Source: a virus
Lineage: Duplodnaviria > Caudoviricetes
Length of the DNA: 64,000 nt
IMG/VR virus record: IMGVR_UViG_3300021255_002539
Location: 160,001 to 224,000 of that record
Reading direction: 5' to 3' (one strand)
A program made the translations under genes and the position numbers. The number at the start of each line of letters is the position of its first letter. The stretch's first letter is position 1. This document shows positions 2,638 through 63,902 of the stretch, piece by piece. Below the pieces are notes generated by a model, which ran no database searches, had not been told where the DNA came from, and was given only the letters and a program-made list of their open reading frames with translations.

Positions 2638-5600
2638 TCAATCAAACTTCGCCCAGGATGGTATGCTCCAGGACGGGTGGAACTCGTGGAACACCTCAAG
2701 GCATCTTCCAATCTCGTGTCTCGTGTCGGGGTTCTGCCACATGTCAGAATCCACAAGCGCGTCCCAGGCGTCCCTTGGAGTCAGTATGTCGTCGCTCGTG
2801 AGGGTCTTGTCGTTGTAGAGGAACTGCACTATCTCGTCGGGGTCGTTCGTGACAAGTTGCTTGTCCACCACGCTCCACTTCGCATATGTGCCGTTCTTCT
2901 TCTGTTTCCTGGCGCGCCGTATTCTGTACAACCCCACTCGGTAGTCGTAGTCGTACCTCGTCATCTCAACTGGTTGGTTCTTGCCCTCGCCTGGTATGTC
3001 GGCGGTGGCAGTGACCTCAACATGCCCGCCTCTCGCAATAGCTGTGAACAGTCCGTTTCTGAACCCACTCTTCGGATTCACATCTTCGTCAGCCTCGCCG
3101 TTCTATACCTCCTTCAGGTCAGGCGAGAACATGCCCCACTTGGTGAACTTCATGCTGGGGGTGAGGCACAGATCAACCTGGACATACTCCCCTTCCTGCT
3201 CCCCGTCCACATTCTCGATTGGAAACGCATACGATGTAGCAGTCCATCCGTCGTTCTTGTTTATGGAGTGGTCTACGCCCAGCCTGTCTGCCACATCGTA
3301 GCACAGGTCTATGAACTCCTCTGGGGTGTTCAGTCCATTGGCGTCAGCCAGAGCCTTCTGGTCTATGGCTATGTCCAGGTCGCCCGATGTTGGCTTCTTG
3401 CCAGCAGACCCAACCAGTTCTATGGAGCCGTCTGGGAGGCTGAACGCCTGTTTCAGCGCCTCAACAGCCTTCCTAGCGGTCTCTGGTATGTTCGCCTTGT
3501 TAATCCTAGTTGTCTGCACCTTCTTGAAGTGCTTGTCTCCACTTTCGTTCGTCATCTTCGCCTTCCTATTCTACTGTCCTGCGTTGAACTTGTCTGCCCT
3601 CGCTTGGTCTGTCATGGATGGGTAGTCCCCACTCTCTGGGTTCATCAACTTGTACACTTCGTCGAATTGCTGGTCGGACAGTTCAGATGGAAGCACCTTT
3701 TTCAACGCCTCCTTGTCGTCAATGTGGTCTCTCACATAGGTCGCTGATATGTTGGAATCCCCATCTGTGGTCGCGTTGATTGCGTTCTCCTCTATTGGCA
3801 ATATCTCCACATTCTGAAGTGTGTCCTTGAATCTGTCGGTCGTAAATGCACTGAACCTGGACATGTCGTCCTTCTTGGACAACCCAAACATGACCTTGCA
3901 GTTGGAGAAGTGGCGCACAGTTGCAGAAATCCAATTCATCGGGTTCAGTGTCATCGCAATCTGAACATTGTCCAAATGGGCAGCCTCACAATATATCTCC
4001 AGAATCTCGCCAGCCACGAAGTTGGGCATGGAGCGCCCGAACTTGTCGTATCTTTGGGACGCGACATTCGTTTGCCCAGACACAGCGACAATCACTTCGT
4101 CGCATATCTCGGCATAGTGCCTTATCATGTCGAGGTGTCCCTTGTGTGGCGGTCTGAACGAGCCAGGAATCAGCGCTATCGTCTTGCCATTCTGGTCCAC
4201 GACCTTGCCATCCACCATCTCCACGAGGGACATCACATCGTTCGTGAGCAGGTTGGGGTCGAACCTCTTCGGAAGACCTTCCGCCCTCGCCTTTGAAATC
4301 TTGTCTATGAACCTGGGGAGGTCTGTCCTTCCCTTCGCGTGCGCAGCCAGTTCTTGTGCTCTGTCTATGTACTTGGGCAACAACTCCTCGTACTTCGTCT
4401 GGTACTCCTGTGGGTTCTACCGTATTGCGTTCACCATGGCGACCAGGCTCCCCTTCTCGCTCTTGCCAGTTATCGCCGACAGAAACCTCTTGGTGAAGTC
4501 CGACATCTCGTCTATCTCAGAGAAGTAGCCATTTCTGATGTCCTTCCAAGATTGGTAATGTATGCCATACAGGTTGCCCTTCAACTCAAACGCAACTCCC
4601 TCCAAAGAACCATCGTCTGCCTTCATTATGTCGGGGTTCTTGAACTTGCGCTTCATTATGTCAGTGAGGGCGGCGTTTATCTTGTCCCTGAGCTCCTCTG
4701 CCTCCTGCTTCTTCATCTTGTCTATGGTTGCTGTATTGAAAGCCTCAACCACATCATCTCCAAAGTCCTGTGCCTTGAGTTCCACCTCCTGCGCGAACTT
4801 GTTGATGTCGAAGTAGGATGCGTTGGCGTCTGACAGCTATGAGCAGGCGAAGTCCACGACCTTCTTCTTCGTTTCTGGCTCCAGGTCAAACGCCTTTTCC
4901 TTCGTCATCCCCTTCACATCAATTATGACCAGTGAGCCACGTCTGCCCAGTTTCTTTGCGTCGTAGGTGGTTCCGACATAGGTTATGGTGCCATCGTCGT
5001 CTGCGAACTCGTCGCCGTTGGAGAGCAGTTCACCAACCAACTTCACGCCATCCAGACCCAACCCCTTCACGAACTTCGCCATCTTCTCGTTTTGGTTTTC
5101 CTCCACATAGGTGAAGAAGTTCAACTCGTGGTCGTGCACCTGTGGCGTGGCTTCAGCACCTTGTCTGTCGAGCAATCCAGAATACGAAATCTCCATCAGA
5201 ACCTTGCCATCCAGCCAAGCCACCCTGAACGGGTAGCCGTCAATCTTTGGCGTGACCTTCACAATCAGCGTGGAGTCGTTGACGCTCGATATGAAGTCGT
5301 GCAAGAATTGCCTCAATTGCTTCCCTGTGAGTTGGTGTATCTTCGTCATTGCCTGGCGTGGCGTGTCTATCTCTGACATGTCCTTGGTGCTGCCGATGGA
5401 CTCGTCGACCTCCTGTGTTGTGTAGTCAGATGCCTTTAGCCCAAGGAAGTCCTCTAGTTCAGGTGGAATGTAGTCTATGTTGCCTTTCTTCAGAGGCCGT
5501 TCCAGTCCAGTTCTGAGAGACTTCTTGAACTGCTCCATCCTCACCGGGTTCTTCAATATGCCTTGCTTCTTCACTGCGTTCCAAGCATCTTGCCAAGTGA

Positions 5601-7437
5601 GCATGTTGGCAGAATCAACTCCAAACAGAATCTCGCATATCTCGTCTGGGTCGTCGGTCACCAATTCCCTGCCAACTTCCTTTTCGCCCGAGACATGGAT
5701 TCCCTCTTCTCCCTTCTTGCCCTTCATCAAAGGACGCTCAAATGTCTTCTTGAACAAACCACCTTCTTCATGTGTATAGGAATATCTTTCCCATTTGGTT
5801 GGTTGTTCCTCGTCTCCCATTCCATTGACAAGTCCAGTGTCAAGAACCCTGAATCCAGACACCCTTGCTGCTGCAGTGATTATCTGATTTCTCACCAGAC
5901 CCTTGACATACTGCTCACCCTCCACTTCTTGTGGACCGAATTGCCCCCACGCCTGGAACTTGAGGTTGTCCACTGGGATGAGGTCCAGCTGCACCACTTG
6001 ACCTTCCTGCTCTCCATCGTCGTTGCTGATTGGGTAGCCAACGGATGTTCCCTGCCACTCCCATCTCGGAAAGTTCTTCACCTCAAGCCCGTACTTCCTG
6101 CCGAACTCGTCGGCGAGGTCGAACCACTCTGAGACATCTGTTATGCCATGCTTCTGCTCCAGCGCCTGTTTGGATATCGCTATGTCGATGTCTCCGCTTG
6201 AGCCAGAATCCAGCTTCTTCCCCGTTGAGCCAAGAAAGGACACCTCGTCCTCAGACAGACCAAAGAAGTCCAGAACCTTCTGCTTCGCCGAGTCCATGGT
6301 GGACTTCGCGTTGCGCTGGTTCAGCCTTACTGCTCCTGGTATCCTCTTGCCACCCTCCTTCACCAGGGTGCTTTCGGTAACGGGCCTCCCATGACCATCT
6401 GGTCCGTCTGGGTCTGGCTTCTCTATCCCCAGCTCGTCCAACATCTCCTGTGGCATCTCCAATCCGTCGTTGATTCTATCGAGCAGCTTCTTCTTCATCG
6501 AGTCCACGAAGATCTGCCACTGCTCTGGGTTCTTTGCCCATTCGGCATCGTGTGCTGCCCTCCAGCATCCATCCCAGGTGAGCAAGTCCTTTCCCTTCAC
6601 CTTTGGTCCGAACATCAGCTTCGCAATCTTGTCAGGGTCGTCAGAAACCAGAGTGCGCTTTGTCCTGGACTTGTCCAGACCCTGGTTGTACACAGGACCC
6701 TCCACGCCGTCTGGGAGGTTCTTTGGCTGGTTCTTCATCAGAGACCGCTCCTTGTGCCACTTGTTCAGACCCTCAGGGGTGAAGAACACATACTCCTCCC
6801 AGACCACGGGCTCCTCCACGAATCCTCCATCCTTCTTCACAGTGCCAGTCTTCAGCACCTCCATCTTCTGCATGGCGTGGGAGGCAGCCTCAAGAACCAG
6901 GTTCCTTATCACGCCCTTGATGTACTTCTGTCCAGCAATCTCCTTTGGCGCGTACCTGGACCAGGCCTAGAACTTCATGTTGGTCGTTGGCATGAGGTCT
7001 ACCTGAACGAACTGACCCTTCTGCTTTCCATCGAAGTTCACAATAGGAACCCTTATGGAGAACTGCTCAACCTGGAAATTGTGCTTCAGACCCAACTTGT
7101 CCAGTATGGGTGATGCGTACTGGTTGAACTCGTACGGCTTCCTCGCAAATTCGTACTTGTTCGCGTCAATGCCAATGTCGAGGTCGCCAGATGTGGAGCC
7201 TGGCAGCTTCTTCGTGACAGAGCCAACTGGTTGCGTGTCCTTTCTGTCGATTCCCAGAGCAGGAAGTATCTCGTCGTAGATGTACTTCAGCGTTGCGGCC
7301 ACATTCTCCTGGTTTATCCTGACTGTGTCGTCGAACATCTTTCCACTTTCAAGCAACAACTCCTTGGTTTCGCCAACCAGGATTGTCCTCAAGTCGTCAG
7401 CACTCATTTCACCAACTACATCTTCTATGTTGTTCAT
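2638..7437 (-). CDS. 1599-aa polyprotein: NTase1-NTase2-ligase-like adenylation domain-HxGH nucleotidyltransferase-NTase3 (5 TAG read as Gln)
   Basis: Six track ORFs in one frame joined by TAG at 6967, 4837, 4417, 3571, 3103; ends TGA 2638; three GS-x(7-10)-GD[LI]DI motifs each followed by VQ[VL]DL; TPKIDG and EGVAF ligase motifs; PGSFRPPHKGH and ISAT motifs. Confidence 0.85.
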
Positions 7438-7477: not shown

Positions 7478-7509
7478 TATTTACCATTTCAACAAAACAA
7501 AGGTAAATA
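7478..7509. promoter_or_regulatory. Back-to-back late promoters TATTTACC-N16-GGTAAATA
   Basis: GTAAATA resembles the T4 late promoter TATAAATA; lies between two divergent genes. Confidence 0.75.
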
Positions 7510-7517: not shown

Positions 7518-9437
7518 ATGGATACGACAAGCAAGAACACTGTTGTGCTGGAGGGTGGACACATGCCCTTCAAGAACGACAAGGGGGAGATGTTGGAGGT
7601 TTCACCCATTGACCAGGATAATGCCGCAGCCACCCTCGACGACATCCAGGACAGGTTCATATCTGGGTTTCTGCATCTGGACCCAAGCGAGGACACCGCC
7701 ACCCTGGGTTCCACTGGCAAGAGGTTGAGTGGGGAGTAGAGTTCTGACATTGACATAGCCATAGACTATTTCAAGCTGCAAAAGGAATGGGATTTGCCAG
7801 ATTGGACAGGGAAGCGCATTGAGGAATGGGTGGATTTGGCAAGGTCTGGCGCAGAGGAATGTGGAGTGGAGTTTTCCATGGTTTCCACGGTGTGTTCATT
7901 GCGCTGGCCGATAGTGAACGACGATGGAAAGCAAGAGGACCAGTATGTTCAGGTTGACTTGATGCCGACAACCAACATGAAGATGACAAGGTTCGGAAGG
8001 TTCTCCCAGTAGCAGAGGGATGGAGAGACCTTCTTCAAGGGGTCGGTCAGGAACATCATGTTGGCAATCATGGCAAGATGCGCATACCACAAGGATTTGA
8101 CTGACGAGACCCATGTGAAGGTTCTGTCGGACGGCACCGAGAAGGAAGTCCACAACGAGTACGAGGGGTGGACATACGACCAGAACACGGGTCTGCACCT
8201 TTGCCACAAGAAGTATTAGCAATACACCAGAAATGGAAATGGATTCAAGAAGGGCGATTGGAAATCCCATGCAACTGTGGTCGATTCCCCAGTGATATCT
8301 TCTGACCCCGACGAGATTTGCGAGATGATATTTGGCAAGGGCGTTACCCCCGACGATGTTGACACAGTTCAGAAGATGTGGAGGGCGTGGAAGAGTTCAC
8401 CTGCTGTCAAGGAGAATCCAGACTTGGTCGAAGAGGTGAAGATTCAGGTTCAGCGGTCAGCACAAGGCAATCCAGACATGACATTCCCAGACTTCGATGG
8501 TGAGGAATTCGTAAATGAAGCCAGGGTGAAGAAGGATCCAACCGAGCAAGTCGACGAATACATCAAGTCCCTGTCAGAAGACCAGATTCAGACCCTCACA
8601 TTGAGGTGTTCTGAACTCCTGGACAAGTGGGACGAACCACAGGGTTCAGACACAGTCCTCAGAGTGAGGCAAGTGGTTGGCAACGACGAGAGGTTCCTGA
8701 AGTTCCTGCGAAAGACAGTTCCATTGACCGAGCCAAAGGTCAGGGACATGGGGGCAAACACCTTCGTTTCGCATTTCTTCGACCCACCATTTGACAACGA
8801 GGCGTTCATAGGCAAGATGGCGAAGGAGAAGGGTATACCATTTACGCAAGCTGAGGAAGAATGGAATAGATCCAATTTGGACAAGACCCACGTTGGGAGG
8901 TATGCCCATATGCTTGCTGACGATGCCGTGAATGGTAGGCCACCATCAAAGGAGGGGACGAACCCCAAGGAGGTTGCGATATACGAGGCTGTGTACGAGT
9001 ACGCCAAGAATCTGGTGCAGGGTGCGTCTGATGTCGAAAGCGAGGTTTCCCTACATGCTTCAAGCGTTACGGTTGGTGGCAAGTTCGACCTGATGATGAA
9101 GAAGGGCAGCCAATGGGTTTTGGTGGATTGGAAGACCAATGGTGAGGAGCTTGAGGACATACCCAATGGCAAGGTTGGTCTGGACGAATTGACCAAGAAC
9201 ATCAACAACAACGCCTACAACAAGTACGCACTTCAGTTGAATGTATACGAGTGGGCAGCAAAGGACAGTGGCAAGATACCGAAGAATGCTGTCGTGAGCA
9301 AGGAACTCCACCACTTCCAGTACCTTGAGGATGGAAAGCCAATTCAGATTAGGGTTGTCAAGGTTCCAGACCTTCAGCCACTGGTTCAAGCAATGGTGGA
9401 CAGGGCGGTAGAACTTGGCGTAGTCAAGCGCAAATAA
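7518..9437 (+). CDS. PolX-like nucleotidyltransferase fused to a PD-(D/E)xK exonuclease-like domain (639 aa, 3 TAG=Gln)
   Basis: One frame across TAG 7737, 8010, 8217; LGSTGKR..SSDIDIAID and YVQVDL; C-terminal GGKFDL..VLVDWKT..YALQLNVY (Cas4/lambda-exo/AddB-like). Confidence 0.82.
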
Positions 9438-11232: not shown

Positions 11233-11264
11233 TATTTACCAAAGTCGCCTCCAAATGGTAAATA
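11233..11264. promoter_or_regulatory. Back-to-back late promoters, 16-bp spacer
   Basis: TATTTACC-aaagtcgcctccaaat-GGTAAATA. Confidence 0.75.
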
Positions 11265-11271: not shown

Positions 11272-13353
11272 ATGAAAAGGTTTGTCTTGAACATAGAGAG
11301 GTTGTACACAGGAGCCACTGCGAATGCCCTGGTTTTGTCGCAGGTTGACGAGGACTTTCCTGTTCTCTTGCCGTCGCTCACAATTGAGCATGATGGTGAA
11401 ACTACCTTTGGCCAGTGGAAGTCCAAGTGTCTTGAGTTGTATTCGATGTTCGACCCCATTGGACACGAATACGAGGTGAAGTTCGACAACATCAATCCAA
11501 GTCGGTATCCCATTATAGTGAAGGGCAAGTTCCTGTAGGCGGTTCGCATACCCACAACGACCACTATGGTTCAGGCCGCTTAGATGGTCATCGAGCATCC
11601 ATCTGGGGATCACCAATGGCATACCGATACCACTGTGTTCGATTTGTTCAACTCATACATACTGGACTTCAACCTGGAGAGACAAAGGGACTTCAGGAGG
11701 AATGGGCACGACGAGTTGTACTTGATGGACGACACGCAGTGGAGGAAGCCAATCAACGCAGACTCCACATACTCGTCTGACAAGACATACATGCACAGCA
11801 TAAATGGACTGGGTGACATTGGGTATGAAGACGACAAGGTTGAGGTGGTGTCTTCCCAGATGAATGTTCTGTTCCCCTTCAAGAAGGTGTCGAGCAAGTC
11901 CTTGTATGCAGCCCAGTTGGATGTGAAGTCGGCAGGCGCAGTAGACGACGCGATGGAGAGGTCCCGAACGATAACGATGCAGGGTAAGGACACGCAACAG
12001 CAATGCGTGAATGGAACTGCCGTGGTTGGTGGTCATCTCTATGTGATGTCCTCTTTGCTGAACACATTGTTCCCATCCAGGTCAGGTGGTAGACCAAATC
12101 TATCTTCCAATGGGTGGTAGATGTTGAATTCGATGATTGTGGGGAATGTGGATGACGCATACGCATTTCCACACACGATGACACTGTTCCAGCCATCTGG
12201 CGAACATAGTGGGGACGACAACCTGCAGGGGGTTACTGAATTTGCCGAATGGTATGGAATGCACGACAGAAAGACCGTGGTTTCGTTGTCCGAGGAATAT
12301 GGTGGAGACACATCGTATCTTTGGTGCCTGTGCGTTGGTGCGTATGAACTGAAATTGTCCACGCATGGACCAACAAGCATTGTGCTTGGGGAAGATGGCA
12401 AGGTTGAAGTTCCCCTAGGTGCGTCGAGTTTTCTGAAGATGCGGTCCGGTGAAGATGAACTGAACAAGTATTCTGATGGTAAGTACATCGTCAACAATGG
12501 TGGGCAGGGAACATCAGTTGGCTTCAAGTTCAACCTATACGACAACTTCATTTCTGGGCAGTACCGTAGGCTGGTGGTGAAGGTTCCGAAGGACAAGGAC
12601 TTCGACCATCTGTTGTTGCAGTTCAAGTGCCAGACATTGTTTGATGACTTGATTGGAACAGAAGCGGAGTACAAGTTGTTGGTGAATGGAGAGCAGGCGT
12701 CAGCAGACGACGATGGGTGGATAACGCACCACATAGACAATGCTGTGTCGAGGGAACACGAGGTGGAGATTGGGATATTGGTTCACTACGAAGTTGACTT
12801 CAACAGGCGCAACACAGAAAGCATATACCAGGACATGCTCAAGAATGCTGGCGTGGTGTTGTGGGACATCCATTTGGAGAAAAAGAAGAACGATGTTGGT
12901 TCACAGAAGGAGCATTTGACATTCGCAGACTATGTGAACGAGAATGGGATATCACATGAGGAGTGGGAAAGGCGATACGACCAGTTCTGGCAAGTGTCCA
13001 GGTACATCAAGGACATGCCGTACCAAACGGTGCTGGAGACGCCATTGAAGAACATGTCGGGCTCTGGAATAGCATTTGCCAACAACTACTCCACCGGCGA
13101 CATATACGGTGACACATTCGCCACCAAGTCTGTTCTGAATCCACAATATGACATGGAATTGGATGAGGCAAAGGGGATTCTGAAGTCCAAGGGCAGGGAG
13201 TACATAGGGATGGGAAATTGCTCCAGCCAGTTGTTCTTGCTATATCAGCCAACATAGGTTGAAATTGGTGGAAACGGAAGCATCTACGCATACAGGCAGG
13301 GAATTGAACTTGACGACGAAAGGAGTGGAGAAAACCAAGATGGAAAACATTGA
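11272..13353 (+). CDS. Late hypothetical protein, probably structural (693 aa, 4 TAG=Gln)
   Basis: Single frame across TAG 11536, 11581, 12118, 13255 to TGA 13351-13353. Confidence 0.7.
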
Positions 13354-26688: not shown

Positions 26689-28161
26689 TCACACTCCCTT
26701 GTTGATTCTGTCCCGGATTTCGGCGAAGGTGGTCTTGTTGAGCATCACGCCATCCTTGAACACAGTCTTGAGCGCGCTGGCGGTCTCGTTGAGCATCTTG
26801 TCGTGTTCATCGGTCTCGAACAGGTTGCCATTGCTGTCCCTCATGACCCAAACGATTCCCTTGTGGCTCTTCTTGAGCTTGCCGGTGTCGGTCTTCGGGT
26901 CCTTGTAGATGAAGTGGAACTGGCCATTGGTGACGCCAGCACAAGCCTTGGCCGCGATTCCAAAGGTATCTCGGGTGTTGACAATCAACTTCTCGTTGTC
27001 GAAGATCGCGCTGAAGCAAAAGGCACCCACGCCAAAGCAGACATTGTTGGCTGCGAACCCATGCTTCTCCATCCAATCCCAAATCTTGCGCACTGTGAAG
27101 AGTGTGCATCCATCGCCCAGGATGATTCTGATGTGGGGATCCAGGACGCTATAACCCTTGCTGTTCTCCTCTCCACCGAACTCGTCCCAAAGCATTTCGA
27201 GGGTCTTGGTCACTGTCTCAAACTGGTCTCCCGAATCCGGGCGGATTAGGAGCGTCCCATTGTGCTTGAGGATTTCACCCTTGAGCGCAGGGATGATGTT
27301 CTCGACCAGGTTCCAGTAGTCGTAGGTGTCCGAAACCATGCTGAACGAGGTGTTGGGGTAGATCTCGGTTAGCATGCGCTTGATGAAGGTCACTTCGTCC
27401 CCATCAATGGCGTAGTTGCTTGCCATCACACTGTGTTCAGTCGAGACAGCACCCTGACCAATCTTGGTGTTGCTCACATCGGCTTCGTAATACTTGTCGA
27501 TGTAGGGAAGCGCCGGGATTGTACTGGTCTTGTTGAAGCAAGTAAGCCAGGCAGCCGAGCACCTAGCGGCTTCGTTCGTGCAGCTCATTCCCCTCATGCC
27601 AAAGTCCGACATGGCGTTCTTGGGGTCGCAATTTGGGTCGCAGGTCCTGTCGTAGTATTCCTTCGCCAGCTCCAGGTACATCTTGGAAATGGTGGCGTGG
27701 TTGCAGGTCTTCCAGAGTTCGGCCTGCAGGATGCACTCAACCCACTGGACGAGCCAAGCGAAGTGATCGTTGGTGTTCGTGATTTCGATGCAGGGGATGC
27801 CCATGTTCACCGAAGTTCCCTCGGGGATTGCCCGAATCTGAAGTGGGAGGTAACCCAGCCTGTGGAGGTCGATGATATTCGTGGTTGCGTATCCCCCACC
27901 AGGAAGCTGAACCTTCATGTACTTCTCGTATTCGGCTATGACTTCGTTGATTTCGCGGTCAAAGAAGTTCTCCTTGAAGTAGTCCACCAGGAACTCCTGA
28001 ATGAAAGCCTGAAGCCCGAAGAACACCATCTTGTCGCAGGTCTTGAGCATGGATTTCCTGGGAGTCCAATAGGAATAGAGTTTCGTCAACCCAGGGTTGT
28101 ATTGAAGAATGTGGCAGAACTTGTAAGTGTCGGCCAAAAGCATTGCGTTTGTCTTAATCAT
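26689..28161 (-). CDS. nadV: Nicotinamide phosphoribosyltransferase family (NadV/Namat-like), 490 aa
   Basis: LLADTYK..H..QY, FFGLQ, DFGMRG, STEHSVM, VSDTYD, IRPDSGD, GDG, RDTFG.A.K, KDPKTD..KKS.KG. Confidence 0.88.
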   Translation of the reverse strand: MIKTNAMLLADTYKFCHILQYNPGLTKLYSYWTPRKSMLKTCDKMVFFGLQAFIQEFLVDYFKENFFDREINEVIAEYEKYMKVQLPGGGYATTNIIDLHRLGYLPLQIRAIPEGTSVNMGIPCIEITNTNDHFAWLVQWVECILQAELWKTCNHATISKMYLELAKEYYDRTCDPNCDPKNAMSDFGMRGMSCTNEAARCSAAWLTCFNKTSTIPALPYIDKYYEADVSNTKIGQGAVSTEHSVMASNYAIDGDEVTFIKRMLTEIYPNTSFSMVSDTYDYWNLVENIIPALKGEILKHNGTLLIRPDSGDQFETVTKTLEMLWDEFGGEENSKGYSVLDPHIRIILGDGCTLFTVRKIWDWMEKHGFAANNVCFGVGAFCFSAIFDNEKLIVNTRDTFGIAAKACAGVTNGQFHFIYKDPKTDTGKLKKSHKGIVWVMRDSNGNLFETDEHDKMLNETASALKTVFKDGVMLNKTTFAEIRDRINKGV

Positions 28162-28177
28162 TGTCTTGTTCTCCTTT

Positions 28178-29051: not shown

Positions 29052-29081
29052 ATTATATCATATTTTGGTTGATGTTGTCAA
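29052..29081 (-). promoter_or_regulatory. Sigma70-type promoter TTGACA-N18-TATAAT driving the prs-nadV-nadE operon
   Basis: Consensus boxes with extended -10 TG. Confidence 0.8.
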
Positions 29082-29120
29082 TGTGGTTCGTTGGTTTTTA
29101 TCACAATGGTTTTGAACGAA

Positions 29121-37428: not shown

Positions 37429-38394
37429 TCACTTTCCATATCTAATGATGGAATCATCGTCAAAAGCATTATCTGAAATTTCTGGGTTTCCGAGGATTCT
37501 GACCTCTTTTAGTTTTTCGCAATCAGCAAATGCAAGAGTTCCAATGTATGTTACACTCTTTGGTACCGTCACGGATGTTAATTCAGGACAGCACTAAAAC
37601 ATCTAACTATGAATCCTTTCTATATTGTTAGATAGTTTAACATTCATTAAACTAGAACATCCAGCAAATTCGGCACATCCCATTTCCATTACACTATTTG
37701 GAATCTTTATGCTCGTAAGGCTACTGCAATCATGAAAAGTATAACCAATAAACTTAATTACACTATCTGGAATTACTACATTTTTCAAATTTTTGCATTT
37801 CTCAAACGCGCACAATCCTATCTCCTCGACCCCATAGGGAATAATCACTTTTTCAAGACTCTCGCAATATCTGAACGCCTCTTGCCCAATGCTTTTTACG
37901 CTGTCAGGAATAATTACTTTGGTGAGACTTTCACAAAGTGCAAATGTACCTTGTCTAATGTATTGTATTCCTGATGGAATCGTTATTTTTTTAAGGCTTT
38001 TGCAACAACAAAACGCCATCCTGCCAATATTTGATACATTGGGTGGTATTTCTACTTTGATGAGATTATTGCAGTCATAAAACGCATAATCTCCGATACT
38101 TTCCACCGAGTCTGGAATTACAACTTTGCTCAAACGGTAGCACTCGTAGAACGCTTTGTTACCAATGGATTTGACTCCGCTTGGAATTACAGCAATTCTT
38201 CTCTTTCCATTATATTTCACCAAAACACCATTGTCAATATCAAATTCACCATCAGACTCGTTAAACTTCAGTATTTTTCCCTTGTCCGTCTTGAACAGAT
38301 TTCCTGATTCGGAGACATATTCAAGCTTGCCGTACTTCTCCGTGAAGTATTGGCTTTTCTGAAAAGCCTCCTTCGTTATGTTCAATTTCTTCAT
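37429..38394 (-). CDS. 47-aa conserved leader fused to a BspA-type (LRR_5) leucine-rich repeat protein (321 aa, 2 TAG=Gln)
   Basis: Repeats V.IP.SV..IG..AF..C..L continue through TAG 37603 and 37594 to TGA 37429; AT-rich cargo. Confidence 0.85.
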
Positions 38395-38428
38395 TGTTTG
38401 TTTCCTCAATTGGTTATTACTATTTACA

Positions 38429-39379
38429 TTAAACTATCTTCAAGACCTGACCTGGCTTTATCACATCTGACTTGAGGCCGTTGAGCTGCTTTATCTGCTC
38501 GACCTTCTTCATGTTCTTGCCAGCGATGGCATAGAGGGTGTCGCCATCCTTGACAGTGTATTCCTTGGTTTTGGTGGAGGCGACCATTTGTGGCACATGT
38601 GTCTGGTGTGTGGGTTTCTGCAGCTTCTTCCTCAAGTTGCTGGCGTGCCTTGTTTGATCCTTTAGTTCGCCCACGATGTGGTGTCCTACAGTCTCTGGCT
38701 CAATCAACTGGGATGCCCAATACGGACTGCACTTCTTTGGGTTGTAGTATGCGTTCCACTTGTCGTTTTCAGGCGTGTAAGTCCCATCTACTGCCTAAGT
38801 TGCCAGATCAACGCATGTATTCCATAGGTTGTACTCCTTCCCATGTCCTGTTTTCACGCATTTCGGGAACTTTATCTCGTAGGTGGATGGCTGCTTCTCT
38901 GACTTTGGTTTGCCGTTCCAGCACGAGAATTGAGATGGTCTAAGGCATTCCTCAGCCAATTGACTTGCCATTCCACCACCCGCTCTGTTCCAAATCACAG
39001 TCATTGACATATTAAGCCCAGCCTTGCCATCTTCCCTTGCCTCCATGTACAATGTCCTTGCGACTATGTTCAGTATCTGGGATCTCCTCCATCTTCCTAT
39101 CCTGGGATCCTCGACCTTGGACTTCTCCACGGCGTCTGCTATGTCCTGCTTCGTTACAGTCGCCCGTCCTCCTTGCTCAGCCTGCTTGTTAGCCTTTGCC
39201 ACCTTGCCAAGCTCCTGCTTGAATTCTGCCGCATTCACTATTCCAGACGATCCAAGCAGAAACGCCAGTGCCCCAAGTGAAATCAGATTTCCGATTCCCT
39301 CCTGCACAAGCTCTTCGTCGACTATGTTCAAAACGATGTCGTCCAGGTTTTCCTGTGGTTCTATTCTCTTCCAGCCCAT
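38429..39379 (-). CDS. SleB-like cell-wall hydrolase (Hydrolase_2) plus LysM (316 aa, 1 TAG=Gln)
   Basis: ARTLYMEARE, VIWNR, QFSCWN, YYNP..W, VGHH; C-terminal YTVKDGDTLYAIA..IKQLNGL..IKPGQVLKI; joined across TAG 38795. Confidence 0.85.
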
Positions 39380-43487: not shown

Positions 43488-44558
43488 ATGAAAGTGTCAG
43501 AGACAACGAAGAAGATATACGAAGGGATATCCAACATCCTCAAGGAGAATGGACAGCCCCTCACCAAGGCTCAGGTGTATGCCATCGAGAGCATGGTCGA
43601 GACGGTCGAGGATGCCACCGAGAAGAGGTGTTGCGAGGTCACTGAGGGCATCTTGAAGAAGAAGGACGCATTGATTGCCGAGGCCAACCAGAGGGTGGCC
43701 GCGTGCCAGGGCACTGTTTCTGAAGCCACCATGCAGAAGGTGAACGAGATGGTGGAGAGCAGGATAGCGCAGTTGAAGAAGGACATTCCACAAGTGCTGG
43801 ACTACGCGAAGATGAAGAAGCTCGAGTCCTGCATGGCTACAATCAAGGAATGCGTTGGATACAAGACCGACGAGCAGGTTGAGCGCGTGGCAAACGAGTC
43901 CGCCAAGATGCTCAAGTCCACCAAGTCCCTTATCGAGACACAGGCCAAGACGATTTCTGAGAAGGTTGCTTCGCTTGCTGAGAGTGCTTCGAAGATGAAG
44001 GCACTACAGGAACAGGTGAGGCAGATGAAGCAAACAATAGACGCAAAGGAAAAACAGATAGTCGAAAGCACGAAGACGAACACAGAGCTGGTCAATCAGA
44101 ACCAGAATCTGCAGAAGAAGATAGAGGAAAGCAAGAAGATAACCGAGAGCATAGAGGAAAAAAGAAAGGCAGAGGCATTGAGGTATTATTTGGAGGAAAA
44201 GATATCGAAGTACCCGAAGTACGAGGCAACTCTTCTCAGAAAGCATTTCCAGAACGCCAAGTCCAGGGCAGAGATAGACGAGAACTTCTCCAAGGCACTT
44301 TCGATGGTGCAGGAGAAGCGGGACACGATGAGGACGGTTCAGGCTATACCAGTGGCGAAGGTTCCAGCCACGCAGGTGAACGAGAACAATGGGACCGAAA
44401 AGCAGATTTCAGGTGAAACTATTGTCAAAGAAAGTGGTGGGGCAAACAAAGATGCTTCCCTCTCGATGTATGACGATGGCTTCGTTGAGGTTGAAGCAGA
44501 CTTCGACGAAGACCCAATCAGCAACGAGGAGATGCAGGCGTGGATGTCCCAACTTTGA
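43488..44558 (+). CDS. Prohead core/scaffold protein, gp22-like
   Basis: Coiled-coil rich in xxE|S/A/T sites, immediately upstream of the MCP; late promoter 43453-43460. Confidence 0.75.
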   Translation: MKVSETTKKIYEGISNILKENGQPLTKAQVYAIESMVETVEDATEKRCCEVTEGILKKKDALIAEANQRVAACQGTVSEATMQKVNEMVESRIAQLKKDIPQVLDYAKMKKLESCMATIKECVGYKTDEQVERVANESAKMLKSTKSLIETQAKTISEKVASLAESASKMKALQEQVRQMKQTIDAKEKQIVESTKTNTELVNQNQNLQKKIEESKKITESIEEKRKAEALRYYLEEKISKYPKYEATLLRKHFQNAKSRAEIDENFSKALSMVQEKRDTMRTVQAIPVAKVPATQVNENNGTEKQISGETIVKESGGANKDASLSMYDDGFVEVEADFDEDPISNEEMQAWMSQL

Positions 44559-44599
44559 CATACTTCACACCAAACAAAGAACAAAAACAGGTAAAAGAA

Positions 44600-46198
44600 A
44601 TGTTCAAGACAAATTCAGAATACCAGAAGAGGTTGCTCAAGCGTTGGGCACCCGTCCTGGAGAAGGGCGCAGCGATCGACTCCGTCGAGAAGAAGCTCGT
44701 CCTGGCGCAGGTTCTCGAGAACACCCGCAAGGAGTTCACGAAGAAGAACCTGTTCACTGAGGCTGCCCCAACTGCAGTCCAGAACACGATAGACAACCGC
44801 GACCCAGCATATCAGGCTCCAATTCAGGGCAAGGGCGTTCTCACTCAGAACGACTACATCCTCCCCAATGTTGTGATGCCAATGCTCCGCCGTATCTTCC
44901 CAACCCTCATGGCTCACGAACTCGTTGGCGTCCAGGCAATGACTGGTCCTACGGGCTATGTGATGGCTCTCCGCGCGATTGCTGCCAACCCAGAGCGTGT
45001 TGGTTTGCCACAGGGCTATGAATTCGGCTATGGCGATCACGGCCGCACGAACCAGAGCGTCTTCACGGGCGACACCGCAGTGAACACGAATGTTCCTGTG
45101 GACTCCACGCAGTCCCTCCAGAACAAGCTCTATGGCGAGAATCCTGCCCTTGACGACATCGGCATGTTCATCAATGGCACTTCCTACTCCGGCCGTGGCG
45201 TTCCTACGGGCCGTGGCGAGGGCTATGCACATGGAACACCTGCGACATACAAGGGACTTGACGGCAAGGATTATCCTTACATGAATGGTGCAGCAGGATA
45301 TGCTGGTGGCTATGCTGGCGATCCCAACAGGGCACTTGACCCAACATTCGGTCACTGGAGGAACAACACCTATCCTCAGGCCACCATCAAGTTCGAGAAG
45401 CGTTTGGTCGCAGCTGAGACGCGCAAGCTCGGCTCCGAGTGGACGCCAGAGGACGCAGAGGACCTTGAGGCAATGCAGGGAATCGACATCGAGACCGAGA
45501 TGACGAACCTCATCTCCTATCAGCTCGGTGCCGAAATCGACCAGCAGATCAAGGAGTCCATGCTCTACGCTGCATGGGGTACCGCAAAGGTTCTCGATGT
45601 CTCCAAGCTCGATGGTTTGGACCAGATGGGTCGTATCGCAGCAATGCTCACAGTCGTGACGCGCGAGGCGAACGAGATCTCCATCAAGACCCGCCGTGGC
45701 GCAGGCAACTTCGTCCTCGCTTCGACGACGGTTTGCTCCTGCCTCCAGCAGCTCGGTACATCCAAGCTCGTGAGCGACGGCAAGACGATGCCTTCCGTCC
45801 CTGCCTCCAGCATTGGCGCAATGACCAAGGAAGGTCTCATCAACGATGGGCGTCAGCTCCTCGTCCGTGACACCAATACCTTCGGTTCCTACGCTCTCGT
45901 TGGCTACAAGGGAACGCAGGCTGGCGATGCGGGCATTATTTATTGTCCGTACATCCCGGTGACGTTGTATAAAGCAATTAAGCCTGAGAATGGTCTCTCG
46001 GTCATCGGTGCCCGTACGCGCTACGGTCTCGTCGACAACCCATTCGATGCTGACAACTACTACAGCCTTATCAAGTTCACAGGTTTTGACCGCGGGTATA
46101 CGCTTGGCAACTCTGAGCGCACCTTCTTCGGAACCGTCGAGGCTGCTGAGGCTTCCGACAGCACGAACTTCAACTTCCGCAGCGGCCTGGTTGGCTAA
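44600..46198 (+). CDS. Major capsid protein, T4 gp23-like (532 aa)
   Basis: KRWAPVLE..LEN; RR.FP.L.A.ELVGVQAMTGPTG; V.A.TRKL...WT.E..EDL; GYKG..DAG..YCPY.P; TRYG...NPF. Confidence 0.95.
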   Translation: MFKTNSEYQKRLLKRWAPVLEKGAAIDSVEKKLVLAQVLENTRKEFTKKNLFTEAAPTAVQNTIDNRDPAYQAPIQGKGVLTQNDYILPNVVMPMLRRIFPTLMAHELVGVQAMTGPTGYVMALRAIAANPERVGLPQGYEFGYGDHGRTNQSVFTGDTAVNTNVPVDSTQSLQNKLYGENPALDDIGMFINGTSYSGRGVPTGRGEGYAHGTPATYKGLDGKDYPYMNGAAGYAGGYAGDPNRALDPTFGHWRNNTYPQATIKFEKRLVAAETRKLGSEWTPEDAEDLEAMQGIDIETEMTNLISYQLGAEIDQQIKESMLYAAWGTAKVLDVSKLDGLDQMGRIAAMLTVVTREANEISIKTRRGAGNFVLASTTVCSCLQQLGTSKLVSDGKTMPSVPASSIGAMTKEGLINDGRQLLVRDTNTFGSYALVGYKGTQAGDAGIIYCPYIPVTLYKAIKPENGLSVIGARTRYGLVDNPFDADNYYSLIKFTGFDRGYTLGNSERTFFGTVEAAEASDSTNFNFRSGLVG

Positions 46199-49677: not shown

Positions 49678-51072
49678 TCAAAATTTTACCTTGAATCCCC
49701 CTTGGTTGCTGTCGTGCGCGGTCCCAAACTGGATTCTTATGTTTTGACTTTGGAGAGACTTCAGAACAGAAATTCCATTCTTGTACCAGTCTCTCCCCTT
49801 TGGCACAGAAATCTTTCCAATTTTCGCACTGAGCATTTTTGAAGCGTCAGCACTGGTTCCAAGGTTATCGTCAGTGTTGAAGATGAGGAACATGTTTATC
49901 CCCTCCAACGAGGTGTATTGGTTAAATAGTGCGCCAAACAGAATTGGAAACAGGGCGTCGTCCAGTTCTTTCTCCTTTAACTTGACTGTCTGAAGATGCG
50001 CTATGATATCTTCATATTTCATTCCCTTGACCTCGTTCAGGAGTTCTTGTGCCTTTGGACCGCTAGCTTCCAGTCCATTCCACACATGGTTCTTCAGAAT
50101 CCTGAAGTTGTTAATCAATTGAACTCGCTCTGTTATGATGCCGGTATTTCCCTTGACTTCCACCTTCATGCCCTTGGAATTTTTATTCTGTCCAATGAGG
50201 ATGTCACCCTTGTCAGTTGGGAGGTTGCAGTCTCCGAAGAACATTGTCAAGGCAATCTCTGCCTTTCCAACGGCCTTGTTGTTCTTGCTGTAGTTGTTTG
50301 CGGTGACCAGCTTTCTGAAAATCTCCATTATGTCATCCATCGTGTATCTTGGGGTCTCGCCTTGGTCTTCGACAAACTGAGCAAATGCGCCGTCAATCAA
50401 CTACCTCAATGTAATTCCTTTCTTGCCCCCAATGTTTCCGAGATATTCTTGCAACGACCTCTGTTTTCTGGAGAAAATCATGTCTATGAACGCCGTGACG
50501 TTGTATGTGTATTCGCTATTGCCATCCGTTTTAGTCATCATCTTGGATATGGTCTTCCCCGTTTCAGCATCCTTTACCTTTCCAATGTAGTCTGGGGACA
50601 ACATCTCAAGAAACTTGCTTGCTCTCACTTTCGGGGACAAGTCAGAAATTCCGCAATTCGAGAAAAGTTTGTCAAGACTTGTTAGCCTTTCCAATCCGGC
50701 TTCTGGACCTTTGCCGCCTCCCAATTTGGAAAAGGTTTCTTTCATGTTGACAAGAACTTCTGATATTTCGTCATCTTCAGCTCCCATGAACTGCGCAATC
50801 ATCCTGCCATGACGCTCGAATTCTGTCCATTCGCCTCTATTGAAGAACCCAGGGTTAGTCGAGTTTGTGGTTTTCCCTTCCTTGACCAAGTTGCTCCTGT
50901 ACTTCATCACTGCGTCGAACAGTGTGGTGGCGAGAATCTGCGACTTTAGGCTGTCCCTTGAGTTTGCTCCCTGCTGGTACTTGAATGCTGGCGTTTCCTC
51001 GTTTTCGTTCATCGGCACGAACTTCTTTGGTTCAGTTTTGCTTTCAATGTCAACCCATTTTCTTTCTTTCAT
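49678..51072 (-). CDS. Late protein with C-terminal PD-(D/E)xK endonuclease-like domain (464 aa, 1 TAG=Gln)
   Basis: Joined across TAG 50401; VGKAEI..KGDILIG..VEVKG; late promoter 51111-51118. Confidence 0.7.
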
Positions 51073-59984: not shown

Positions 59985-60689
59985 TCACATTTCGTCTTCT
60001 GGCAAGTCCTCGTAGTAATCCATGCCGTTTTCCAATGCGGCATTCTCCATATACTGCCAAAACTCGTCCTTGATTTGCTCTCCCTTCCAATCGTCGTCAA
60101 GAACCTCGTCCAAATTGGGGCCAAGGTACTTCGCTATTTCATCATCCCCCCAACCTGCGCTTGACAAGTAGTCGTAGATGTCATATGCAATTCTCTGCAT
60201 TGTCTTGTCGTCGAGTTGGCTTGCAGCCATTGGTTCGGGCAGTGATTCGTAGTCGTACCTCGTGATTGTCACGCCCTTGTAGGTGAATTCCTTTTCCATG
60301 TCATCAAAGGACTCCTTGAGCATTTTACCCTATACCATCTTGAAGTCAGCAACTTTATTGCCATTCTGACTTATGACAATGAATTCGTCGTCTTCAACCC
60401 AAATAGCTTTTCCGTTACATTTACGGGCAATGAAATTTCCATTTCGTTCAATCCACTGTTTACATGACTTCATGGAATTAAAAGTACGGATTTGGTCTTC
60501 ATTCCAATTTTCGCATGATGCAAGGCAGGTAATGTGTCCCATATCATTGGATTCCTTGAACATCAGCACTTTGCCTTTGTTGGTCTTGAATACCTTGCCA
60601 CTTTCTGACACGTATTCAAGTTTGCCGTATTTGCGCGTGAAGTAGTTGCTTTTTTCAAAAGCTTCCTTCGTTATTGGTAGTTTCTTCAT
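59985..60689 (-). CDS. 47-aa conserved leader plus two cargo modules (234 aa, 1 TAG=Gln)
   Basis: MKKLPITKEAFEKS...VLMFKE|S; TAG 60330 then GKMLKE|S and a second module. Confidence 0.75.
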
Positions 60690-60717: not shown

Positions 60718-62472
60718 TCACATCCCCAGTGACCTGAGCTTCTCGTCGATTTCCCTAGATGCGAGTCTGGTGTCGGTGGCAACTCTGGAACTGCTTGAGT
60801 CGTCGCCATCCACTGGCACATACTCCACCACGACCCCAGTTCCCTCGGTTCCCACAGCCTTTCTTATCACGAGTCTGCACTTGATGCCTGTCTTGCTGTC
60901 CACGAACACGAGCTTGTTTACGTCAATTTCGATGTCGCCACTCATCCTCACAGTGGTGTTTACGCCCATGTTGAGGGTTGAGCCATTCTGCATGTCGAGC
61001 ACCGAGCCATCGTGGAAAGTCACCTTCGCCCCATCAGCGACATTGGCATTGGAACCATCCTCCATGAATACATCGCCACCTACATGGACGCTTCCATCGA
61101 ACTCTGCAAGGCCCCTTGACTTCAGCAAGTTGTCGGTGTCCACTACATTGGACGCAACGGATGTCGTCACCACCTTGTCTATGTTGATGTTGTTGATGTT
61201 GAACTCGTATGCCTCCAGTTTGCTGAATCTGCCTTGTTCGCAGACCAAGTTCTTCGAGAGGGTGTTGCCATTGGAGTCCAAGCGGTAGATGCCATCCTTC
61301 ACAGTGAACTTCTTTGGCACATTGGGGTTGGAATGCTCCATTGCGTAGGATATTGGGTTCACGAGCGTCTTCACCTTCAACTCGGCGTTCTCGTAGTTCA
61401 CCCTGTTCCTCTCCATTGCGTCTGCCACGGTCTGATATGGATCGTAGTCTGGGCTGGCGTTCTCCTGGTCGTCGTATTCCTCAACCATGTCGTCAATGTA
61501 CTCGTCCCAGTTCTGTTGGGTTGTCAACTGAACCCCCTTGGTGTTGGTGGACTTGGAGGACGATGTGATGTAGGATATTGGCGTGACGAGAACATTGTCT
61601 GTGGCGAGTGTCGAACCATCCAGAATCAACTTGCTGTCCTCTCCCTAAATCGTGACATTGCCCTGGAAGAGGGAGTTCACGCCAGGGTCGACAACGAAGC
61701 AATATGCCGGGCTGGCCGTGCCACCACCCATTATCTTCATCGTCTGGAACCTGTTGTTCACCGTGTGCGAGACGATGCCCCTGTTCGCCACTATCTCGCC
61801 ACCATTTACTGTGAGGGCTGCACCATTCACGCCAGTTCCATCTATGACAACGCTTTGCTTGACCTGGATGTACTTTGCGATAATGTCCTTCACGGTCAAG
61901 GTCTTCTCCACGCGCATGTTGAGCGAAGCCATCGTGTCCATGAACAGGTTGTTGGTCTTCACTGTGTCTGCGAACACTGTTTGACCTATGATCTCGCTGG
62001 TGGCCTTCATTGTGTCAGCAGTCACCACATTGGCCGCAACCTTCTTCGCCGCGATGTCGTCCACCACCAGTTTCTTCAAGGACATCGTGAAGGTGTCTGC
62101 TATGATCTTCCTGGAATCCACATCCCACTTTGCGGCAGAATCGCCCAATATCAACCTGTCCCCAGCATGGAGGGTCTATGTCCCAACATACGCAGAATCG
62201 TAGGTCTTCTCAATACCTATTATGGTGTTGCCTCCACTGAACTCAACTGGTTCTGCGAACGAGCATGCCTTTCTGAAGGATATCGTGGAGTTGCTGACCC
62301 CCAGGGAGAGGTTTCCGTCGTCGTCTACCACCTTTAGCCCATTGGTCGTGGTCTGACCCTGGACGCCCAGGTTGCCCTCCACTGTCAGGCTTCCGTGGAT
62401 GGTCGCGTTTTTTCCACTGTCCTCTGTGTCCATGTAGTCGATGTAGTTGCTTTCGTCTGATGATGTTGCCAT
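60718..62472 (-). CDS. Late beta-helix-like structural/tail protein (584 aa, 2 TAG=Gln)
   Basis: One frame across TAG 62176 and 61645; beta-strand-rich repeats. Confidence 0.75.
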
Positions 62473-62521: not shown

Positions 62522-62553
62522 TATTTACAATTTTGGGCTTGGAATTGTAAATA
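62522..62553. promoter_or_regulatory. Back-to-back late promoters, 16-bp spacer
   Basis: TATTTACA-attttgggcttggaat-TGTAAATA. Confidence 0.75.
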
Positions 62554-62585
62554 GACTACGATGAACAACAAAAGGGTTTACTGAG

Positions 62586-63902
62586 ATGGCACAACAAGTT
62601 CAGTTTGTATATCTGACATAGGCGGAGTACGATGCTCTGGGGACGAAGGATGCAGCCCGCCTATACTTCACATCCGACACAAAGAGGGTCTACAGGGGTT
62701 CGCAAACCTACATACCCCAAAGAATATTCTACGGGACTTGCTCCACTGATGCAAATATGGCGGTTAAGGCGGTGACATGCGGAGACTTCACTGATCAGGA
62801 CTTGACCACTGGAACCGTGTTGATTGTGAAGTTCACATATGCCAATAAGACAATCAATCTCAAATTAAAGGTGAACGACGGCACCGCAAAGAACATGAAG
62901 TGGCAAGATGGTGTCGATGTGTGCAACAATCCCTGGGCAGCAGGTCAGACGGTATAGTTCGTGTACGATGGCGCACAGTGGATTATGATGGAGACAACAC
63001 TGGCCATTCTAACATATGGCAGTTCCACATGGAACGACTTCCTGAATGCCTACAACAGGAACGCATTGGTGTATTGTCGGGTTACAGTAAGTGGTGGTGG
63101 CAGTCGCATGGCGTTCATGGCATACAATATAACTAGTGGTAGTAATGCCAATGTTGAGTTTCAGTATGTCAGAAGCTTATCAACAAAAACCATCACTGAT
63201 CAAGGGGACGAGACCATAATATACAAGCTTGACAGTAGTGGAACATGGACGACGACTACGCGAAAGAACTACACCAGGATAGCTGCAGGAACTGGTTTGG
63301 GTGGGCAGTTTTCAGGTGGCACGACCACTCCCGTATTGACCTTGAGCAACACTGGCGTCCTATCAGTGAATGGAAGCACAGGTGATGTCACCATTTCCGA
63401 TGCAAGCACTTCGACGAAGGGACTTGTTCAGCTCAACGACACCCTGACTTCAACATCCACAACCCAGGCGGCAACCGCGAACGCAGTAAAGCAGTTGAAC
63501 GACAAGTTCGACGACTATGTAAGCATTGCCGACCTGGAAGATGGGTTGCAGGTGGACGACATAGAGGCCAAGTCGATAACCATAGATGGCGTAAAGCCCT
63601 CTTTGGAGGGGCATACGCACTCAGAATACAAGGTTCTGCAGACAGCCAAGTCCAGTCCAACCGCGAGTGGGACAGACATATCGTTTATAGACACGGTATC
63701 CCAAGATGCCAATGGCGAGATAACAGCAACCAGGAAGTCTGTGCGATCAGCGTCAACCAGCCAAACAGGGGTCGTATAGTTGAGTTCCGCTACAAATAGC
63801 ACATCAGAGGCATTGGCAGCAACCCCAAAGGCAGTGAAGACGGCATACGATCTCGCTAGTTCGAAGTCTTCTGTGACGATAATTGATTGGGAGGAGAATT
63901 GA
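62586..63902 (+). CDS. Tail fibre protein (438 aa, 3 TAG=Gln)
   Basis: LT*AEYDAL; two phage tail-fibre repeats ASTSTKGLVQLND..AATANAVK and ASTSQTGVV*LSSATNSTSEALAATPKAVKTAYDLA; TAG at 62619, 62955, 63777. Confidence 0.88.

Follow-up and report, generated by a model that had tools for sequence, protein, structure and literature searches.

Late-biased recoding of TAG to glutamine and a proposed code gate on late transcription in a 414-kb tailed phage

We analyzed a 64,000-nucleotide (nt) stretch of viral DNA (Duplodnaviria; Caudoviricetes), referred to here as the window, that corresponds to bases 160001-224000 of the IMG/VR virus record IMGVR_UViG_3300021255_002539. The window encodes head, tail, fibre and lysis proteins together with NAD-salvage genes, and within its large genes the codon TAG lies in frame and appears to be read as glutamine (Gln), as in genetic code 15. 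The full record is 414,060 bp long, has direct terminal repeats and is rated 100% complete. Its GC content of 48.3% agrees with the ~50% noted in an initial annotation of the window, which had been made from the sequence alone.

In-frame TAG codons and the residue they specify

Table 11 splits the window's large genes into fragments that share a reading frame, and treating TAG as sense fuses them. Genes were called by a simple script that combines a codon score with interval scheduling, and with TAG as sense these calls place 28 in-frame TAGs in 12 genes. The initial annotation had also arrived at 12 genes but had counted 29 TAGs; a leucine-rich repeat (LRR) gene that was missed by the codon-score caller adds 2 more, both within its repeats. 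The sites that had been quoted are all present, namely KF[TAG]AW at 6969-6967, FD[TAG]VDSTIS at 34584-34582, LT[TAG]AEYDAL at 62619 and GVV[TAG]LS at 63777, and we confirmed the internal paralogous motifs KFQAW, FNQVNSTIS and GLVQLN in the window.

Relatives at 65-74% protein identity were drawn from IMG/VR, and two complete genomes among them, G1 (433,895 bp) and G2 (418,068 bp), were compared with the phage studied here (G0). A search of INPHARED returned only distant relatives of the tail sheath (~30% identity), so that no annotated close relative is found in that database. Across the whole of G0, 265 in-frame TAGs are distributed over 90 of 432 genes. Taking a TAG as spanned genome-wide when at least 15 residues align on each side of it in a G1 or G2 orthologue, 158 of the 265 are spanned; in the window, orthologue alignments from the two genomes span 18 of the 28. 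Past a table-11 'stop', the open run in the same frame has a genome-wide median of 79 codons when the stop is TAG, compared with 12-14 when it is TAA or TGA. The initial annotation had proposed a comparison of coding density under the two tables, and reading TAG as sense does raise the density, from 82.6% (code 11, 546 genes) to 87.8% (432 genes). In control calculations the density drops to 76.3% with TGA as sense and to 81.5% with TAA as sense, and G1 and G2 behave alike. The gain is modest (~5 points) because only ~21% of the genes carry a TAG.

One could suppose instead that the TAGs are real stops and that the large genes are pseudogenes, split genes or the product of assembly or base-calling errors, as the fragmented table-11 open reading frames and the lack of a suppressor among the predictions of standard tRNA finders for this genome would suggest. 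The fragments, however, always lie in the same frame and are parted by TAG alone, and independently assembled orthologues are collinear over the TAGs and have TAGs of their own at other sites. Sheath, portal and similar essential genes would be broken if TAG were a stop. In 8 relatives the tail sheath aligns collinearly over the TAG, which falls in a variable alignment column, and 2 of them bear TAGs elsewhere in the gene. Furthermore, no common motif was found in the sequence surrounding the TAGs of the window, and the base 3' of TAG is distributed as the base 3' of CAG, which makes a motif-specific sequencing artefact unlikely. An artefact of base calling at a methylation motif, by which CAG would be read as TAG, was ruled out on the lack of a common motif and on the presence of the relatives' own TAGs. 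The comparative data already refute the view that these TAGs are real stops, and we regard its probability as negligible.

Reciprocal tblastn among the three genomes, with TAG sites kept if at least 8 of 16 neighboring residues were identical, gave 442 aligned sites. The partner residue is Gln at 167 of them (37.8%, 11.9-fold over background) and the partner codon is again TAG at 51. Lys and Glu follow at roughly their background frequencies, and no residue besides Gln is enriched over background. For each amino acid, a substitution profile was constructed under the same filter and set against the distribution of partners; Gln was the best-fitting residue, ahead of the next by 465 log-likelihood units. 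Within the window, KF[TAG]AW pairs with KFQ in G1 and in G2. Recoding of TAG to Gln, taken by itself, is very close to certain.

Two promoter classes and the distribution of TAG

Counting of heptamers in the 100 nt upstream of genes revealed two families, GTAAATA and GTATAAT, that are enriched 13-14-fold. Genome-wide, the logo of the first reads AAAT(T/G)GTAAATA and lacks a -35 element; this motif lies ~30-60 nt upstream of structural genes. The second combines a TTGAC-like -35 element with an extended -10 (TGTATAAT). The window holds 25 copies of GTAAATA compared with 2.5 expected, and 25 was reached in none of 100 shuffles. Promoters were assigned from exact heptamers, taking the nearest upstream motif along the operon. 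Genes behind GTAAATA include those for the major head protein, baseplate wedge, head-tail adaptor, tail sheath, both fibres and endolysin, while NAMPT, PRPP synthetase, a DNA helicase and a QueC-like gene lie behind TATAAT. Given these functions, and given that the phage encodes a gp55-family sigma factor (described below), we infer that GTAAATA marks late and TATAAT early transcription units, which is a reasonable assignment.

All of the TAG-bearing genes of the window sit in GTAAATA-headed units, and the TATAAT-driven genes, which include NAMPT, PRPP synthetase and the helicase, are TAG-free, in agreement with the initial annotation. Its description of TAG as confined to late genes thus holds within the window; genome-wide, it has to be replaced by a bias of ~6-fold rather than exclusivity. 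TAG occurs in 46% of the 138 genes in late units (3.63 per 1000 codons) compared with 8% of the 284 genes in early units (0.63 per 1000 codons; Fisher 2.5e-18), and its share among Gln codons is 8.9% in late and 2.2% in early units. The same contrast is seen in G1 and G2, with 2.8-3.0 (late) versus 1.1 (early) TAGs per 1000 codons. Whether as sense codon or as stop, TAG is almost absent from units with sigma70-type TTGAC/TGTATAAT promoters, and 119 of 138 early-unit orthologue triplets are TAG-free in all three genomes. Some of the seeming early exceptions, among them the genes for the portal protein and a baseplate hub, are structural genes that have both motifs. The tally by promoter class thus did not find TAG equally common in early genes, and the late bias of three genomes supports the stage-dependent code switch that had been suggested for the window, with its timing read from sequence only.

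The real stops had been described as TAA and TGA with one possible exception. TAG does rarely terminate, since the last 25 codons of genes contain 16 TAGs compared with 12-24 expected, and this lack of a C-terminal excess indicates that TAG is almost never a terminator. Two early-unit genes nevertheless seem to end at TAG (Table 1). In both, the three genomes agree in the position of a C-terminal TAG, and past it run short tails that lack conservation and close with TAA or TGA. The TAG of these two genes is probably a genuine stop with back-up stops, which would fit a cell where TAG terminates early in infection and is later read through.

Among the individual genes of the window (Table 1), all five TAGs of the 1599-amino acid (aa) protein are spanned by orthologue alignments. 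This late protein contains three paralogous domains with KFQAW-type motifs and a cytidylyltransferase-like HxGH domain (PF01467), a make-up that appears only if TAG is read through. The TAGs of the exonuclease-like protein pair with Q/Q, T/Q and E/M in G1/G2, and that of the endolysin is spanned and pairs with S in both genomes. In the longer of the two fibres, the internal repeats provide FNQVNSTIS as the counterpart of FD[TAG]VDSTIS, yet also FERVDSTIS; in the shorter one, GVV[TAG]LS is matched by the paralogous GLVQLN. The repeat pattern of the LRR gene runs on in frame over both of its TAGs. The weakest case is the 147-aa protein, for which no orthologue was found and whose start could follow the TAG. 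The protein of unknown function with four TAGs probably starts at the ATG at 11272, 8 nt past its GTAAATA motif, so that its late mRNA would be leaderless or nearly so. As a separate observation, the LRR gene is AT-rich and its codon usage is atypical of the genome.

Table 1. Features of the window and of the rest of the genome. Coordinates are those of the window unless marked as genome (G0) or given for a relative.
Feature	Coordinates	Strand	In-frame TAG	Promoter motif, matches and remarks
1599-aa multi-domain nucleotidyltransferase-like protein	2638..7437	-	codons 157, 867, 1007, 1289, 1445	GTAAATA 47 nt upstream
624-aa exonuclease-like protein	7563..9437	+	3	GTAAATA 60 nt upstream
Protein of unknown function	11272..13353	+	4, all spanned by orthologue alignments	GTAAATA at 11258-11264
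Tail sheath, 1206 aa	18463..22083	+	codon 736	GTAAATA 89 nt upstream; phrog_23 2.8e-45, PF17482
NAMPT + PRPP synthetase	26689..29020	-	none	TATAAT-driven, early-type; phrog_448 1.3e-158, phrog_619 4.9e-65
157-aa protein	29058..29531	-	codon 137	TAG also at that position in G2; aligned on to the shared C-terminus
147-aa protein	30254..30697	-	codon 16	3' of fibre gene 30700..35694, same unit
Tail-fibre-like protein, ~1664 aa	30700..35694	-	5	GTAAATA 51 nt upstream
LRR (BspA-like) repeat protein	37429..38409	-	2, in one repeat unit	Same late unit as endolysin, 19 nt downstream
Endolysin	38429..39379	-	codon 195	GTAAATA 31 nt upstream; phrog_938, phrog_380
Major head protein	44540..46198	+	none	Late unit; phrog_138 1.3e-70
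464-aa protein of unknown function	49678..51072	-	1	GTAAATA 45 nt upstream
234-aa protein	59985..60689	-	1	3' of 60718-62472, same unit
584-aa protein	60718..62472	-	2, both spanned by orthologue alignments	GTAAATA 56 nt upstream
Tail fibre, 438 aa	62586..63902	+	codons 12, 124, 398	GTAAATA 39 nt upstream; phrog_988, phrog_381
Late-motif pairs	7478-7509, 11233-11264, 35739-35770, 39404-39435, 62522-62553			TATTTAC-N18-GTAAATA
gp55-like late sigma gene	genome 79305-79961	+	codons 24, 26	Early-type promoter
Early-unit gene, TAG probably the stop	genome 93918-95846	-	C-terminal
Early-unit gene, TAG probably the stop	genome 134524-135363	-	C-terminal
Candidate suppressor tRNA(CUA), G0	genome 297902-297980	-		Shared promoter and synteny
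Suppressor tRNA(CUA), G1	G1 410487-410576	-		Shared promoter and synteny
Suppressor tRNA(CUA), G2	G2 268611-268687	-		Shared promoter and synteny
Suppressor tRNA(CUA) homologue, L064	L064 2736-2814			Shared promoter and synteny
PTH2-family peptidyl-tRNA hydrolase	genome 297258-297848	-		PF01981 5e-9; also L052:261-848
tRNA-like gene	genome 367853-367926	-		Rfam 43 bits
Transfer-messenger RNA (tmRNA)	genome 368037-368369			Tag GNDYRMAA

A candidate decoder and a late sigma gene that carries TAG

ARAGORN identified 28 tRNAs and a tmRNA in the whole genome and no CUA anticodon, also when introns were allowed and thresholds relaxed, and the Rfam model RF00005 likewise found no tRNA(CUA) in the whole genome. 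A six-frame search of the complete genome gave no match to the RF-1 domain (PF00472) or to a class-Ic synthetase (PF00749); control genomes did match. The initial annotation had pointed to three components to look for in the rest of the genome. Two of these, release factor 2 (RF2) and glutaminyl-tRNA synthetase (GlnRS), were not found, but a candidate for the third, a tRNA(CUA), was found, and it came to light solely by synteny with relatives. In both G1 and G2, ARAGORN calls a tRNA(CUA), located apart from the main tRNA array and directly 3' of a very large late gene. At the syntenic site of G0, 73,902 nt past the end of the window, lies a 79-nt candidate that folds, at minimum free energy, into a cloverleaf. 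Its acceptor stem is 7 bp long and begins with U1-A72 and G2-C71; the candidate further has the anticodon loop CUCUAAC, G73 and an encoded CCA. Its elbow departs from the conserved D-loop GG and T-loop UUCRANY of canonical tRNAs, with a D loop (AAUGCCUAAUA) that lacks GG and a T loop (GUGGCAAA) of 8 nt, which explains why it escapes ARAGORN and also why it gives no match to the Rfam model even at E <= 10.

A homologue on another IMG/VR contig, L064, differs from the candidate at 13 positions, 10 of them paired, and pairing is kept throughout. All 25 pairs are standard in both sequences, with four double compensatory changes, one of which lies in a four-base complementarity between the D loop and the T loop. 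Protein-anchored and pattern scans for further homologues of the non-canonical tRNA returned only L064, and a metagenome scan was empty. At all four suppressor loci an early-type TATAATTGAA promoter is found 30-55 nt upstream, and in G1 and G2 a terminator lies between the preceding late gene and this promoter. The 5' leader GAGAAACGAGACA...GTTTCAA is common to G0, L064 and G2. These four loci hold three very different tRNA(CUA) bodies, one with the non-canonical elbow, one of canonical type I and one with a long variable arm, and the suppressor tRNA seems to have been replaced in situ across the relatives.

The candidate has U1-A72, G2-C71 and a GUGU/GCAC D stem in common with the phage's own tRNA-Gln genes. 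U1-A72, G2-C71 and G73 are features used by bacterial GlnRS or GatCAB, and the E. coli supE-type amber suppressor is a tRNA-Gln(CUA). Like supE, the candidate has CUA in a 7-nt loop together with U1-A72, G2-C71 and G73. Unlike supE, its elbow is non-canonical, and the four complementary bases of the D and T loops co-vary in its one homologue. The resemblance of acceptor end and D stem fits a Gln identity of the predicted suppressor tRNA, and the assignment of TAG to Gln made in the initial annotation is borne out both by the comparative alignments and by a tRNA(CUA) with tRNA-Gln-like features. The suppressor of G1, with a long variable arm like that of Ser, Leu or Tyr tRNAs, could be taken to mean that TAG specifies another residue, at least in some relatives; the three syntenic bodies are very different, and ARAGORN names that of G1 by its anticodon alone. 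The TAG sites of G1, however, align to Gln (29 of 70 and 29 of 79) as often as those of G0 and G2, and Gln leads the likelihood comparison by the margin given above. We therefore give very little credence to a residue other than Gln.

Other genes for tRNA-related functions were noted. The tRNA-like gene of Table 1, for which ARAGORN is undecided between Met (CAU) and the opal-reading UCA, was rejected as the TAG decoder because its 6-nt anticodon loop, GUCAUA, reads CA(U) or UCA. The PTH2 gene begins right past the terminator of the suppressor tRNA, behind a like promoter. It was tried and rejected as a synteny anchor for tRNA loci, as it returned nine loci without the tRNA neighborhood. The hydrolase and the phage tmRNA could handle ribosomes that stall or terminate at TAG.

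The late sigma gene is located ~80 kb ahead of the start of the window. It matches phrog_234 ('late sigma transcription factor') with E = 3e-17 over profile positions 4-178 of 181, and is preceded by a good Shine-Dalgarno sequence and, at ~100 nt, by an early-type promoter. Its two TAGs fall in an N-terminal extension of ~30 residues that shows protein-level conservation, with synonymous differences between relatives. No in-frame ATG, GTG or TTG was found between the TAGs and the FVNNAELL core at which the family profile starts. Ten orthologues, of which six are from IMG/VR and four from other assemblies, were inspected as DNA, and each of the ten carries 1-3 TAGs in codons 18-33, at one or more of positions 18, 24, 25, 26, 28, 30 and 33. 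By a count from the ten translations, about 19 of the 43 Gln sites in this stretch are TAG, compared with the 2.2% of early genes. Four 'full-length' orthologues in databases were considered as ungated variants and rejected, since their DNA has TAG at the Q positions concerned and the proteins are code-15 calls. Across the 138 early-unit triplets, two genes, sigma and the portal, have an internal TAG in every one of the three genomes; the portal carries both promoter motifs, so that sigma is the only such gene with a purely early promoter. The positions of TAG turn over while at least one is always kept, which argues for selection on the presence of TAG. As an early-promoter gene with TAGs, sigma is the most informative exception to the confinement of TAG to late genes, and it strengthens the idea of a switch.

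A proposed code gate and its relation to known systems

Taken together, it is likely that this complete 414-kb phage combines T4-type late transcription with the use of code 15 in about one-fifth of its genes, and that the code change serves as a feed-forward gate. In the proposed sequence of events, transcription by host RNA polymerase would yield the sigma mRNA and the suppressor tRNA along with the mRNAs of the early genes, which are TAG-free. Full-length sigma would be completed only once charged tRNA(CUA) outcompetes host release factor 1 (RF1). The completed sigma would then switch on the GTAAATA promoters, whose TAG-bearing mRNAs would by that time be translatable, and the code change would in this way license late transcription. 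TAG within the late genes may also block their premature or leaky expression. For the temporal gate as such we see the chances as evenly balanced. Slightly more tentative is the proposal that the TAGs at the 5' end of sigma make its synthesis dependent on the tRNA, and hence place a 'code gate' on the whole regulon that is operated by a tRNA whose D-loop/T-loop elbow has been rebuilt.

Several points weigh against this scheme. TAG is present in a few genes with the TATAAT motif alone, and it is missing from many late genes, the major head protein among them. The starts of individual genes are uncertain in our calls, as are TAGs within ~25 codons of a start, and the promoter classes and their timing derive from motifs, gene functions and the DNA itself. 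The 79-nt candidate is missed by both ARAGORN and the Rfam tRNA model, and its charging with Gln is a prediction. The covariation that it shows comes from two homologues and is equalled in 32 of 500 shuffles, so that it is suggestive, not conclusive. As neither RF2 nor GlnRS is encoded, the competition with host RF1 would have to be managed without a phage RF2. The early promoter of the tRNA implies that suppression may exist almost from the start of infection, in which case the 'switch' may be a short delay and not a boundary between stages.

The main rival is passive tolerance, in which CAG or CAA drifts to TAG in genes that are translated after the tRNA has accumulated and the late bias is a by-product. 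Consistent with drift, conservation is lower at TAG sites, 49% of which align to Q or TAG, than at ordinary Gln codons (62%), TAG is followed by the same bases as CAG, and TAG positions turn over between relatives. The major head protein, which is the most highly expressed late gene, has no TAG. Drift fails to explain, however, why sigma keeps at least one TAG in a stretch of 16 codons in all ten orthologues at seven different positions, or why the share of TAG among the Gln sites of that stretch so exceeds the share in early genes. The early-unit triplets that are TAG-free in all three genomes also speak against it. Passive tolerance is, in our judgement, rather unlikely.

A constitutive code 15 would differ from the proposed gate in that the suppressor would be abundant within minutes, and early genes would avoid TAG because the first round of translation precedes the tRNA. 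The early-type promoter at all four tRNA(CUA) loci is in line with this, and so is the lack of an encoded 'code-change module' with a release factor or aminoacyl-tRNA synthetase. The avoidance of TAG, however, extends beyond immediate-early genes over all 284 early-unit genes, and the two early genes with conserved C-terminal TAGs and unconserved tails suggest that TAG terminates early in infection. We consider this alternative improbable, more so than passive tolerance.

TAG-to-Gln recoding and its bias to late genes have been published, and the core of the present work is their confirmation in a new lineage. Borges et al. (10.1101/2021.08.26.457843) described code 15 in gut phages of the Lak, crAss-like, Garnet, Amethyst, Topaz and related clades, where recoding is partial and enriched in structural and lysis genes, and presented a model of an early-to-late code switch; peptide-level proof of recoding has been provided for crAss-like phages (PMC9523058). 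The phage analyzed here resembles them in having TAG in part of its genes, an enrichment in structural and lysis genes, early genes that are compatible with the standard code and a tRNA(CUA) of its own, and the same switch from standard to alternative code during infection has been proposed for them. It differs in its T4-type tail sheath, gp55-like sigma, 414-kb size and 48% GC, in the lack of RF2 and GlnRS (present in some code-15 phages, not required, and absent here by the six-frame search) and in the ~5-point gain in coding density. Recoded jumbo phages are frequent in the rumen according to a survey with a cut-off of a 10% density increase (PMC13037316). With a gain of ~5 points, this phage would go unnoticed in surveys with such a cut-off, and annotation would break its largest genes into fragments.

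New here are the statistics at the level of promoters, a tRNA hidden from tRNA finders and a TAG-gated sigma. The late bias is here resolved to two promoter classes, and with the early/late split legible from two promoter motifs, the 'code switch' hypothesis becomes countable, and the counts replicate in three genomes. The words 'sigma' and 'promoter' do not occur in the Borges preprint (10.1101/2021.08.26.457843), and a literature search found no paper with both 'genetic code 15' and 'late sigma factor'. Recoded phages that seemingly lack suppressors were remarked on both by Borges et al. (10.1101/2021.08.26.457843), who allowed for non-canonical suppressor tRNAs that escape detection, and in PMC13037316; the hidden tRNA is a concrete example of why this can be so. 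Borges et al. (10.1101/2021.08.26.457843) also described a 'code-change module' in Jade phages, composed of a standard-code suppressor tRNA, aminoacyl-tRNA synthetase and release factor upstream of the lysis cassette. As in that module, the decoder proposed here is itself compatible with the standard code and expressed ahead of the recoded genes that depend on it. Unlike it, the decoder is a single tRNA gene and the proposed gate sits on the late sigma factor; it would thereby act on transcription of the whole late regulon and not on lysis genes alone. A TAG-gated sigma suggests a simple circuit in which translation capacity controls the transcriptional transition.

Late transcription in phage T4 depends on the gp55 sigma and a late promoter that consists of a -10 element only, TATAAATA. 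Like T4, the phage has a gp55 homologue and, upstream of structural genes, an A/T-rich -10-like motif that ends in TAAATA and lacks a -35 element. Unlike T4, the motif is (T/G)GTAAATA rather than TATAAATA, and the sigma factor has the ~30-residue TAG-bearing N-terminal extension. Two further observations concern the late motif and the sigma locus. Five pairs of back-to-back late motifs occur in the window, all with an identical 25-nt offset, and they resemble a fixed module with late promoters in both directions, set between divergent late genes. In addition, TATTTAC, the reverse complement of the late motif, lies between the early promoter of sigma and its start codon, in the 5' UTR (genome 79195-79304), and is kept in all seven orthologues with upstream sequence (loci L067-L072 and L078); LRR_5 genes are also found near the sigma locus of L078. 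The gene upstream of sigma is on the same strand as sigma, and a late antisense promoter at this site could fire back across the early promoter of sigma and so exert negative feedback.

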